Positions 8,787 through 11,832 of a DNA stretch of 64,000 nt are shown piece by piece. The translations under genes and the position numbers were made by a program. The stretch's first letter is position 1, and each line of letters begins with the position of its first letter. Below the pieces are notes generated by a model. The model was not told the origin of the DNA. It saw only the letters and a list, made by a program, of their open reading frames with translations, and ran no database searches. This DNA is from Escherichia coli (GTDB lineage: Bacteria > Pseudomonadota > Gammaproteobacteria > Enterobacterales > Enterobacteriaceae): the NCBI RefSeq assembly GCF_044324875.1, contig NZ_CP172185.1; one strand, 5' to 3'.

Positions 8787-9425
8787 ATGCCCGGGCGCTT
8801 TGAACTAAAACCAACCCTGGAGAAAGTCTGGCACGCGCCGGACAATTTTCGCTTCATGGACCCGCTGCCGCCGATGCATCGTCGGGGGATCATTATTGCC
8901 GCCATTGTATTGGTGGTCGGATTTCTGCTTCCATCTGATGATACGCCCAACGCGCCAGTGGTGACGCGTGAAGCGCAGTTAGATATTCAGTCGCAATCAC
9001 AACCGCCGACAGAAGAACAGCTGCGGGCGCAGCTAGTTACGCCACAAAATGATCCTGATCAGGTGGCCCCGGTCGCTCCAGAACCTATACAGGAAGGCCA
9101 GCCAGAAGAGCAGCCGCAAACTACCCAAACGCAACCATTCCAGCCAGATAGCGGAATTGATAATCAATGGCGCTCTTACCGTGTCGAACCCGGTAAAACG
9201 ATGGCGCAGCTGTTCCGCGACCACGGACTGCCCGCTACCGATGTCTATGCAATGGCGCAGGTAGAAGGCGCGGGTAAGCCGCTGAGTAATTTGCAAAACG
9301 GGCAGATGGTGAAAATCCGCCAGAACGCCAGCGGCGTGGTGACGGGCTTAACCATTGATACGGGGAATAATCAACAGGTCCTGTTTACCCGCCAGCCGGA
9401 TGGCAGTTTTATTCGTGCGCGGTAG
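8787..9425 (+). CDS. ytfB: Cell-division OapA/LysM-like protein YtfB
   Basis: Track ORF 8751..9425; start at MPGRFELKP gives 212 aa; single TM segment then Pro/Gln-rich linker and C-terminal OapA-like domain. Confidence 0.85.
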
Positions 9426-9525
9426 ATGAAGGGTCAACCAAAAGCCAGCTAAGGATTGTCTCTTTGATGACCTTACGTCTGGCTTCCAGTGCCTGAGGTG
9501 AAACCATACTGATATGTTGACATCC

Positions 9526-9547
9526 TCCACGCCCTGAAGGACGTGGA
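9526..9547. repeat. IS200/IS605 subterminal hairpin, tnpB-proximal (presumed RE)
   Basis: 6-bp stem TCCACG/CGTGGA with loop CCCTGAAGGA, 25 nt beyond the tnpB stop. Confidence 0.7.
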
Positions 9548-9571
9548 TCCCTGCTACGTTCAGGCTGTCGC

Positions 9572-10768
9572 CTAAATCATTTCGGGGGGTTCCTGCTTCA
9601 ACGAGCGGCCTGACTGCACCATCTCTCCACAGGCAAGAACGGCGTGCCCCGCCGCTAAAATGTTACGAGCGCCATTTACATCGGCGTTCGCTGTATATCC
9701 ACATGCCTGGCATCTGAATTTACTTTGTGACAGGCGATTTTCTTTCGCTGTATGACCACAGCACGCGCAACGCTGGCTTGTGTACGCTGGCGGAACAGCA
9801 AGCACCTGACCGCCACGCCAGAGCTGCTTGTACTCAAGCTGGCGGCGCATTTCATACCAGCCCTGATCCAGTATCGAACGGTTTAAACCTGATTTTGCCC
9901 GGACATTGCGCCCCGGCTGGCTGACCGTACCCGCTGCTGACTTTGACATGTTGCTGACCTTCAAATCCTCAATGACTATCATTGCGTGGTTTTTGCTGAC
10001 GGTCGTTGTGACTTTGTGAAGGTAGTCCCTGCGGATATTTGCGATACAGGAATGCAGTCGCTGTATTTTGCGTTTCTGCTTCTGCCAGTTATTGCTGAAT
10101 TTGACCTTGCGGCTTAACTGTCGCTGAAGTCTCGCCAGCTTCTTCTGGTTTTTCTGAAAACTGTTTACAGGCTCAAAGACTGTGCCATCTGACAGCGTGG
10201 CGAGTTTAGCCACGCCAGCATCCAGCCCGACCATTGATGCTGAAGGGTGAACCGGAGTTGATACTTCATTTTCAGTCTGAATACTGATGTACCACTTACC
10301 GCAGGACTGGCTGACAGTGACATTTTTCACAACACCCGTGACCTGACGGCTATTCCGGTAGCGCATCCAGCCAAGTTTCGGCAGAAAAATACGGCTGTTT
10401 TCCTGATCGAGCTTAACGCCCTGCGGGTAGCGGAATGCATCATTCTGTCCCCGCTTTTTGAATCGGGGAAAAGCAGCCCGCTTCTGGAAGAAGTTTTTGT
10501 AAGCCCGCTCAAGGTCTTTCAGTGACTGTTGCAATGGCTGTGAGGGCGAATCTTTAAGCCATTGCGTTTCAGTGGCGTTTTTCCACTCAACCAGCCAGGA
10601 AGCCATTTTCCCGTAAGGGATGTATTTATTACCGGCCTCATGATTCTCATTCTGACGTGCCAGAGCACGATTGAAAACGAAACGACATGCGCCTGCGAAG
10701 CGCCTCATTTCACGCTCCTGTTGACCACCGGGTCTTAACTGGAATTTAAATGCCTGTAGTCGTTTCAC
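9572..10768 (-). CDS. tnpB: IS200/IS605-family TnpB (OrfB), RuvC-like RNA-guided nuclease family
   Basis: 398 aa; N-terminal [13 protein letters not shown]..., RuvC-I-like IEDLKV, C-terminal zinc finger CACCGH...CQACG and RuvC-III-like DVNGARNI; full length with no internal stops. Confidence 0.9.
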
Positions 10769-10775
10769 AGGCCAA

Positions 10776-11390
10776 ATGATACTTTGGTCTGTGAGAAAAG
10801 AAACCGATATCCGGCGTGGAAGGCATTGTGTTTTCCTGATGCATGTTCACCAGGTCTTTGTCACCAAATACCGACGTCAGATTTTTGACCATGACGCGAC
10901 AGAAAAACTACGCACTTACTTTTCAAATGTATGTGCTGATTTTGAAGCTGAACTGGTTGAAATGGATGGCGAACCAGATCACGTCCATTTGTTAATTAAC
11001 TATCCTCCCAAACTGGCGATATCCAGTCTGGTAAACAGCCTCAAAGGCGTATCGGGTAGGTTACTGCGACGAGATCGACCAGATATTGCAGTCAGGTATT
11101 ACTACAAAGGCGTTTTGTGGAGTCCTGGCTATTTTGCCAGTAGCTGCGGAGGTGCGCCAATATCCGTCATCCGCCAATACATTGAACAACAGCAAACACC
11201 TGATCAGGTGGAAAACCGCGCCTTATATCCCCGCCCTGAAGGACGGGGTTTTACGGCGCACCGGATAAACCAGGCCAAGCGTATGCTGGTTGATCAAATA
11301 ATATCCCCCAAGCGCAGCAATATTAATATTCACCTGCAATGGGTCGATATCTGGCTTAAAAATATTGTGTTTCCTCCCTTCATCCAATAA
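10776..11390 (+). CDS. tnpA: IS200/IS605-family HuH transposase TnpA; ORF reads through the subterminal hairpin, so the functional C-terminus is uncertain
   Basis: HuH motif ([11 protein letters not shown]) and catalytic Tyr region ([22 protein letters not shown]); about 55 extra codons follow and cross the 11229..11248 hairpin. Confidence 0.75.
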
Positions 11391-11483
11391 GGATTCCATT
11401 AACTGCAAGTGCGCATGATTAATTTCTAAGAGACACTGTGATTTTGCATAATGCACACCTTTACTTTGGTTTTCACTATGCAC
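11223..11483 (-). pseudogene. ytfA-like regulator fragment whose 3' end is encoded by IS-end sequence
   Basis: 86-aa ORF at the position where K-12 carries ytfA (as I recall); its last codons overlap the IS hairpin, suggesting the IS inserted into or next to the gene's 3' end. Confidence 0.3.
11229..11248. repeat. IS200/IS605 subterminal hairpin, tnpA-proximal (presumed LE)
   Basis: 5-bp stem CCCCG/CGGGG with the same loop CCCTGAAGGA as the hairpin at 9526..9547. Confidence 0.7.
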
Positions 11484-11832
11484 AATTTTTAAAAACCAGG
11501 GATTAGCAATATAATAATCCCAGGTAAAATCGATGATTTTTTCAATGGCTTTTTGTGGCTGGTTAACCTGCTGATTAACAAACGCACCGATACCGACAGC
11601 GTAGAATAATTACATACCGCACAACAAGAATGTATGGTGTAAGGCGTTGTCAGTCATCTCCCTCCCTGGGTGCATCGTTATATCCGTGATGAGCGATTTT
11701 TGATATTAATATCTTTCACCATCCGCTATTTTCACTACTTCAGAAAACAAACTTATTTTTATTAATATCGATTCTTTTTCTTTGAGCATTTAACTACGAT
11801 ATTTATAAAAAAATTAAACAGGCAAAAATACA

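Follow-up and report, generated by a model that had tools for sequence, protein, structure and literature searches.

IS609 in the ytfA pseudogene of Escherichia coli: an apparently functional TnpB and guide-RNA half beside a probably impaired tnpA

A 64,000-nucleotide stretch of Escherichia coli DNA (contig NZ_CP172185.1, assembly GCF_044324875.1; the whole stretch is called the window below) carries, in the gene order fklB, ytfB, insert, ytfA, yjfZ, rplI, an insert with two divergent genes, tnpB and tnpA. The locus raises the question of what this insert is, where precisely it begins and ends, and which of its parts still work. The insert is a full-length copy of the insertion sequence (IS) IS609, an element catalogued in E. 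coli and belonging to the IS605 group within the IS200/IS605 family, and it is inserted 3′ of the tetranucleotide TTAT in the already dead gene ytfA. The best explanation of its present state, to which we give a probability of roughly 85%, is a long-resident insertion whose TnpB and omega-RNA half appears functional and whose tnpA half is probably impaired.

The limits of the insert emerge from an alignment with the empty sites of strains HS-02 and K-12, in which GATATG is followed directly by ATAAACC. This alignment reveals a clean filled/empty relationship, which extends to 3,279 further genomes, and assigns 1748 bp to the insert at 9517..11264; a single shared G makes 9516..11263 equally possible. 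An earlier note on this DNA had recognized an IS200/IS605-family element at 9516-11267, and the element is indeed there, with ends a few nucleotides tighter than proposed. The filled site carries no target duplication, and a repeat search found no inverted repeat linking the termini, so that both terminal inverted repeats and a target duplication are ruled out; subterminal hairpins stand in their place, as the note had anticipated. Over 1748/1748 bp the insert is 98.2% identical to the IS609 copy of E. coli O157:H7 Sakai (NC_002695.2), whose repeat_region, labeled "IS609 Family: IS200/IS605", has identical limits beside ytfB at the same locus. The IS609 copies of Sakai and K-12 (insP/insQ) share the length of 1748 bp, the ends and the divergent gene layout with the window copy, the K-12-type copy at ydcO being 98.1% identical. 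Findings that could have overturned the family assignment, namely, a missing IS match, a missing empty site, or lost RuvC residues, were in no case obtained.

The host gene is ytfA, which the Prokaryotic Genome Annotation Pipeline (PGAP) treats as a TetR/AcrR-family pseudogene without an N-terminus in filled and empty genomes alike, and the interruption lies 107 nt from its 3′ end. The element thus does not sit between ytfB and ytfA, as had been proposed, but within the latter. In strain 118UI, whose sequence here is identical, PGAP also calls a 95-amino-acid (aa) "hypothetical protein" at 11223..11510 on the minus strand; it consists of the N-proximal ytfA fragment running into the left end of IS609 and is an annotation artefact of the insertion.

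A wealth of genomes allowed us to ask how widespread the insertion is. A query made of the joined flanks was uninterrupted in 3,279 of the 5,426 complete E. coli genomes (~60%), and 80-nt probes spanning the junctions found the right junction in 1,434 and the left junction in 1,744 of them (about 26-32% filled), proportions that point to an old, widespread polymorphism. Among the matches to the element, the 30 best are all 100% identical and all occupy the ytfA locus; for 187-189 records in total, the best place is at least 99% identical. The loci of the window allele were judged from such best places in the top-ranked records, one place per record. Other full-length copies, 97.7-98.8% identical, lie beside ydcO (insQ of K-12), beside yedK, between yeaR and yeaQ, and in a DUF3251 gene, and on plasmids there are copies that are partial or have diverged further (about 90-97% identical). 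For comparison beyond E. coli, we used 79 loci of other species, mostly Enterobacterales, whose TnpB proteins are 33-95% identical to that of the window.

The ends of the element have the features expected of the IS200/IS605 family. As tnpB is directed toward the low-coordinate end, the minus strand of the window is the active ("top") strand; within the element, the high coordinates belong to the left end (LE) and the low coordinates to the right end (RE) (Table 1). Their hairpins form a 21-nt direct repeat (D4 in the repeat search; 90% identity, same orientation), have in common the exact 14-mer CGCCCTGAAGGACG, which occurs twice in the whole window, and fold as DNA better than shuffled sequences do (z = −2.7 to −4.1). 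On the active strand, each consists of an uninterrupted 8-bp stem, including one T.G pair, and a 4-nt TTCA loop. The earlier note had located both hairpins (9526..9547 and 11229..11248) and their common orientation correctly; its stems of 5 to 6 bp and its 10-nt loop did not survive, because the complementary strand had been read, on which the T.G pair appears as a C.A mismatch. Compensatory changes occur in both hairpins among the relatives.

Table 1. Features of the IS609 insertion and its surroundings, in window coordinates (minus strand = active strand).
Feature	Coordinates	Strand	Basis and remarks
ytfA, C-terminal fragment	9409..9516	-	PGAP on identical sequence (strain 118UI); uninterrupted pseudogene in HS-02 and K-12
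Flank, predicted omega-RNA guide CATATCAGTATGGTTTCACC	9497..9516	-	Filled site and HS-02 empty site; role by analogy with ISDra2 and the IS605 family
Complete IS609 copy	9517..11264	-	Empty-site alignment; Sakai limits; homology of relatives ending at both ends
Right cleavage motif TCAA	9517..9520	-	End of RE tail AGGATGTCAA
RE	9517..9550	-	GGAT, hairpin, 10-nt tail AGGATGTCAA
Omega-RNA (reRNA) scaffold core, predicted	9517..9663	-	Overlaps last ~90 nt of tnpB plus RE; RNAalifold
RE hairpin CCACGTCC-TTCA-GGGCGTGG	9527..9546	-	DNA fold −7.7 kcal/mol, z −4.0
RE guide tetranucleotide GGAT	9547..9550	-	Directly 5′ of RE hairpin
tnpB (insQ-type; RNA-guided endonuclease by homology)	9572..10768	-	GTG start, 398 aa, no internal stop
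Divergent control region	10769..10790	.	Between tnpB GTG (10768) and conserved tnpA start (10791)
tnpA open reading frame (Y1 HUH transposase)	10776..11390	+	204 aa; catalytic core aa 13-138
LE	11208..11264	-	16-nt leader CCGGTGCGCCGTAAAA, then hairpin CCCCGTCC-TTCA-GGGCGGGG
LE hairpin CCCCGTCC-TTCA-GGGCGGGG	11229..11248	-	DNA fold −7.5 kcal/mol, z −2.8
LE guide tetranucleotide AAAA	11249..11252	-	Last 4 nt of leader CCGGTGCGCCGTAAAA, directly 5′ of hairpin
Target / left cleavage motif TTAT (ATAA on plus)	11265..11268	-	Directly 5′ of LE; presumed TAM for TnpB
ytfA, N-proximal part	from 11265 upward	-	PGAP; strain 118UI, HS-02, K-12

The sequences on which cleavage would depend are equally well preserved. 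TTAT stands directly 5′ of the common LE sequence at all six E. coli insertion sites compared, as the earlier note had expected of a conserved 4-5 nt target motif beside LE, and GGAT-CCACGTCC-TTCA-GGGCGTGG-AGGATGTCAA ends all six copies. Across 29 aligned sequences GGAGGATGTCAA is invariant or nearly so, with RE homology ceasing exactly after it; LE homology in the relatives ceases after TTAT or TTAC, and the LE guide covaries with this flank, AAAG accompanying TTAC and AAAA accompanying TTAT. Biochemical work on IS608 established that TTAC pairs with AAAG and that TCAA sits 10 nt 3′ of the foot of the RE hairpin (PMC3201880), and TTAT and TCAA have been reported to be the commonest cleavage motifs among the TnpB-carrying IS of six species, E. 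coli included (PMC9956272). The cleavage sites of IS609 would thus be recognized, as in IS608, via internal tetranucleotides 5′ of the hairpins.

TnpB itself looks intact. The protein matches the NCBIfam model NF040570 (guided_TnpB) over its full length with 388.7 bits and displays the Pfam order HTH_OrfB_IS605 (PF12323), OrfB_IS605 (PF01385), and Cas12f1-like_TNB (PF07282). It is alignable with ISDra2 TnpB (8EXA/8H1J; phmmer E = 4e-55) over 374 of its 398 residues; the RuvC residues D183, E267, and D363 align with D191, E278, and D361 of ISDra2, and both CxxC pairs of the zinc finger (C333..C336 and C353..C356) are kept. These alignments bear out what the earlier note had read from the DNA, a 398-aa TnpB on the minus strand, divergent from a plus-strand tnpA, with RuvC residues, a zinc finger, and no internal stop. 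The protein carries T394P, and a CAG-to-TAG change (Q399*) in its C-terminal tail makes it 4 aa shorter than the TnpB of other IS609 copies. Among the six E. coli copies compared, the tnpB frame is open in all, and the ratio of nonsynonymous to synonymous polymorphism (pN/pS) is 0.17-0.36 in 14 of the 15 pairs. IS609 is regularly listed in surveys of E. coli mobile elements, and a literature search for the biochemistry of IS609 or InsQ gave only such surveys and listings.

The guide-RNA scaffold is supported by covariation. From 29 elements we took the final 240 nt, aligned them (alignment A1), and folded the alignment with RNAalifold, using as controls the same helices with their partners slid by 1-3 columns. 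The predicted structure has 45 pairs; 96.7% of its cells are paired (41-51% in the slid controls), and changes on both sides occur in 46 cells (5-16 in the slid controls). Over the comparisons as a whole, the ranges are 95-97% (40-50% in the slid controls) and 46-53 cells (4-16 in the slid controls). The strongest helices cover 9663..9517; among them are the RE hairpin and a long-range helix in which AAYAUUUU pairs with the terminal GGAUGU. Farther upstream lie two weaker helices, with which the omega-RNA could reach about 9737. Helix 7 of the RNAalifold structure (columns 221-224 with 232-235) can be replaced by an alternative hairpin (199-205 with 220-226), which has covariation support as well and includes the stop codon that tnpB normally uses, and the alignment firmly prefers neither. 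The mutation that shortens TnpB turns a C-G pair of the alternative hairpin into U.G, so that pairing is retained. Sub-threshold Rfam matches fall at 9504..9687 on the minus strand, the expected position of the omega-RNA, and serve as a positional hint. Membership in the families concerned, HgcC, sot0042, and RAGATH-18, can be rejected: their scores are below threshold, and the likeness is limited to the terminal hairpin and one stem. Taken together, the protein and the covarying scaffold suggest that the TnpB and guide-RNA half of this copy is functional.

The guide of such an RNA can be predicted from the insertion site. In ISDra2, the omega-RNA comes from the 3′ end of tnpB plus RE, its guide comes from the flank, and the transposon-adjacent motif (TAM) is the target motif of the transposon. 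Since the omega-RNA of IS609 would likewise read into the flank, its guide would match the empty ytfA site beside the TTAT TAM, and the empty ytfA allele does read TTAT followed by the same 20 nt, CATATCAGTATGGTTTCACC. By this analogy, the predicted TnpB target is TTAT-CATATCAGTATGGTTT, presumed TAM plus guide match. The flank near 9514 reads CATATC in the window and in HS-02, whereas K-12 and Sakai have CACATC, from which it follows that guide position 3 in the omega-RNA of the window copy would not match the empty allele of K-12. The predicted guide, being the flank of each insertion, differs at every site.

Conservation of tnpB beside a decaying tnpA, at a fixed site present in about 30% of E. 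coli genomes, could also be read as domestication, with TnpB serving the host, for instance, as a TldR-like RNA-guided repressor, and no longer forming part of a mobile element. TldRs, however, are nuclease-dead TnpB-like repressors that have lost their RuvC residues, whereas here the D/E/D triad, the zinc finger, and complete LE and RE are all kept. A guide that changes with each insertion flank and the commonness of empty sites speak in the same direction. The intact catalytic residues and the two ends rule out the TldR-like form of the idea, and we regard domestication in general as highly improbable, the least credible of the alternatives considered here.

The record of tnpA is markedly different. 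Its product retains a complete catalytic core: it scores 143.7 bits against NF033573 (transpos_IS200; cutoff 55; model positions 2-126 of 126), has the HUH motif as HVH and the catalytic tyrosine in RQYIEQQ, and finds IS608 TnpA (2A6M, E = 2e-19) and ISDra2 TnpA in the PDB. At 11205..11207, where the copies of Sakai and yedK have the stop codon TAG and the relatives have either TAG or TAA, the window copy has CAG; as a result, the frame reads through LE into antisense ytfA as far as 11390, and its product of 204 aa exceeds the 143 aa of Sakai by a tail of 61 aa. PGAP marks the gene as a pseudogene. A second change, L26Q (codon 10851..10853), falls in the conserved HVHLVFV strand and is found in the window allele alone, residue 26 being hydrophobic in every relative and PDB homologue compared. 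Among the same six E. coli copies, pN/pS for tnpA is mostly 0.7-1.8, around 1, a ratio based on very few changes, with 0-2 synonymous differences in each pair of tnpA genes. A TTA-to-TGA nonsense codon (codon 96, equivalent to 11061..11063) is common to the K-12/ydcO, yedK, yeaQ, and DUF3251 copies (our loci L005-L008) and absent from the window copy, and the terminal TAG/CAG state is mixed among loci; this TGA at four loci and the mixed terminal codon point to mobilization in trans or gene conversion between copies. Relative to other IS609 copies, the window copy differs only allelically, in its tnpA TAG-to-CAG change, L26Q, TnpB Q399* and T394P, and its lack of the TGA found in the four copies just named. 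With its stop lost and L26Q, the tnpA half is probably impaired.

Could the element nevertheless be a fully autonomous, currently active IS, in which TnpA with its 61-aa tail still moves the element and TnpB homing keeps it? The catalytic core is complete and, unlike in the K-12, yedK, yeaQ, and DUF3251 copies, free of an internal stop; the ends, hairpins, and guide and cleavage motifs are intact, as is TnpB. The conserved stop, on the other hand, is lost, a residue that is otherwise always hydrophobic is changed, and pN/pS in tnpA is about 1. The 30 best matches, all 100% identical, are confined to ytfA, out of 187-189 records at the 99% level. K-12 mutation-accumulation lines yielded 0 IS609 transpositions (PMC5009759), although the K-12 copy of those lines has the TGA in its tnpA. 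We consider ongoing autonomous activity unlikely. Of the earlier note's suggestion that the element may be active, what stands is the part that concerns TnpB and its guide scaffold, which look functional; the lost stop, L26Q, and the near-neutral pN/pS tell against the part that concerns tnpA.

Several points weigh against the interpretation that we favor, that of a long-resident copy with an apparently working TnpB/omega-RNA half and a probably impaired tnpA. TnpA retains all of its catalytic motifs and may tolerate L26Q and the lost stop, in which case the copy could still be autonomous; the tnpA ratios depend on the handful of synonymous differences just given. All Rfam matches are below gathering thresholds (HgcC 25.2 versus 50, sot0042 18.1 versus 88, and RAGATH-18 29.5 versus 44.9 bits), and only homology and covariation underlie the prediction of the TAM and of the omega-RNA with its 5′ end. 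A single relative, L009, breaks the covariation of guide and flank at LE, combining a TTAC flank with an AAAA guide. The union of an apparently functional TnpB half with a probably impaired tnpA nevertheless implies that the copy is most likely long resident, vertically inherited, and non-autonomous or weakly autonomous.

The steps by which such an element would move and be retained can be outlined by homology. TnpA, a Y1 HUH enzyme, would bind both subterminal hairpins as single-stranded DNA and would find its cleavage sites, immediately after TTAT at LE and immediately after TCAA at RE, via the guides AAAA and GGAT. Movement would proceed by "peel-and-paste", leaving no duplication, and the excised circle would join TCAA to CCGGTGCG. 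TnpB would act as an RNA-guided RuvC nuclease with an omega-RNA derived from the 3′ end of tnpB plus RE and running into the flank. After excision, TnpB would cut the site left empty, and a sister copy would supply the element anew by recombination; such TnpB-dependent homing and retention is a published mechanism for the family.

How the two genes are expressed is a further question, as their starts lie almost back to back. The called starts, GTG 10768 and ATG 10776, leave a gap of 7 bp (10769..10775), not the 8 bp given before. The tnpA start that is conserved in the relatives aligns with GTG 10791, which widens the gap to 22 bp; among 14 translated relatives, just 1 has an ATG equivalent to 10776, and L009, the closest relative, has ATA there. 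GTG 10791 is probably this conserved start. The region reads CAT-AGRCCAA..TATAAT-N7-ATG in 16 of 24 aligned relatives, of which 12 have exact TATAAT and the others a hexamer changed at one base. This layout, CAT-AGACCAAAGTATAAT-N7-ATG, has ATG starts 22 nt apart, with TATAAT 7 nt before the tnpB ATG and, on the opposite strand, TATACT 7 nt before the tnpA ATG. In the window copy, the hexamer 7 nt before the start codon is TATCAT on the strand of tnpB and GATACT on that of tnpA. Throughout the E. coli IS609 copies, both starts are GTG and TATCAT replaces TATAAT; L009 likewise starts both genes with GTG but retains TATAAT. The change of TATAAT to TATCAT is what creates the ATG at 10776 used by callers of open reading frames.

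This arrangement suggests overlapping, back-to-back −10 boxes, leaderless or nearly leaderless mRNAs, and −35 regions that would lie within the opposing gene. The earlier note had seen no conventional room for promoters: a generic sigma-70 scan indeed found no site near the divergent starts, and the boxes proposed here are based on conservation in the relatives. A literature search on leaderless tnpB expression gave nothing relevant.

The weak starts also bear on whether the copy is simply an inert relic, with TnpA and the TnpB/omega-RNA pair both idle and the element persisting without cost in a pseudogene. GTG at both starts and a −10-like box weaker than in most aligned relatives would suit such a relic, as would a location in a gene that had already lost its N-terminus and a tnpA in decay. 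It would not explain why tnpB stays open in all six E. coli copies compared, with a pN/pS well below 1 in 14 of 15 pairs, why the omega-RNA helices are kept down to the U.G pair at the mutation that shortens TnpB, or why the ends are perfectly preserved. We judge the relic slightly less probable even than autonomous activity.

A more ambitious proposal joins the start region to retention: AGTATAAT on the tnpB strand, which is ATTATACT on the tnpA strand, would form overlapping −10 boxes with attenuated starts, and TnpB homing would maintain the ytfA insertion independently of transposition. The transcripts may be leaderless and mutually exclusive; the Escherichia lineage (IS609 and L009) may have attenuated both genes by changing ATG to GTG, and the E. 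coli copies also by changing TATAAT to TATCAT. We offer this proposal tentatively; it is doubtful, though less so than the rival accounts above. If it is true, purifying selection keeps TnpB and its omega-RNA in E. coli even where tnpA is dead, and TnpB homing, or a gene-drive-like conversion of empty alleles during recombination, preserves the ytfA insertion.

The comparison with relatives yielded some observations on the wider family. In a sub-clade (L032-L046 and L065; TnpB 62-88% identical) drawn from Photorhabdus thracensis, P. khanii, P. cinerea, P. bodei, and Klebsiella pneumoniae, an insertion of 14 nt enlarges the loop of the RE hairpin and LE is different, and at least 10 copies in Photorhabdus thracensis indicate that this lineage expanded there. 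Short contigs of insect symbionts (L011 and L020) start and stop exactly at the IS ends, which points to a multicopy element that breaks assemblies. Contigs of 0.7-2 kb attributed to Streptomyces mutabilis (L021) and Herbiconiux daphne (L062), with TnpB 83-87% identical, look like enterobacterial contamination.

Set beside well-studied members of the family, IS609 follows the IS608 and ISDra2 paradigms in each feature that can be tested from sequence. With IS608 of Helicobacter pylori, it shares a Y1 HUH TnpA, subterminal imperfect hairpins, the absence of a target duplication, a distance of 10 nt from RE hairpin foot to cut, and the TCAA motif. It differs from IS608 in its target and guide (TTAT/AAAA versus TTAC/AAAG), in the distance from LE cut to hairpin (16 versus 19 nt), and in its divergent tnpA and tnpB, an arrangement like that of IS605 and IS606, whereas the genes of IS608 are co-directional. 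With ISDra2 of Deinococcus radiodurans, it shares the domain order and catalytic residues of TnpB; the presumed TAM (TTAT versus TTGAT) and the gene arrangement differ, and the similarity of the proteins is moderate.

IS609, its insertion in ytfA, and the TnpA/TnpB/omega-RNA mechanism are already known, and nothing here lies outside known biology. The value of the analysis is one of annotation: it fixes the ends exactly, identifies the active strand and TTAT as target and presumed TAM, and predicts a guide directed at the empty ytfA allele. That E. coli conserves tnpB and the omega-RNA while tnpA decays fits the current view that TnpB promotes the retention of these elements, a view that could conveniently be tested with IS609 as a system native to E. 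coli.

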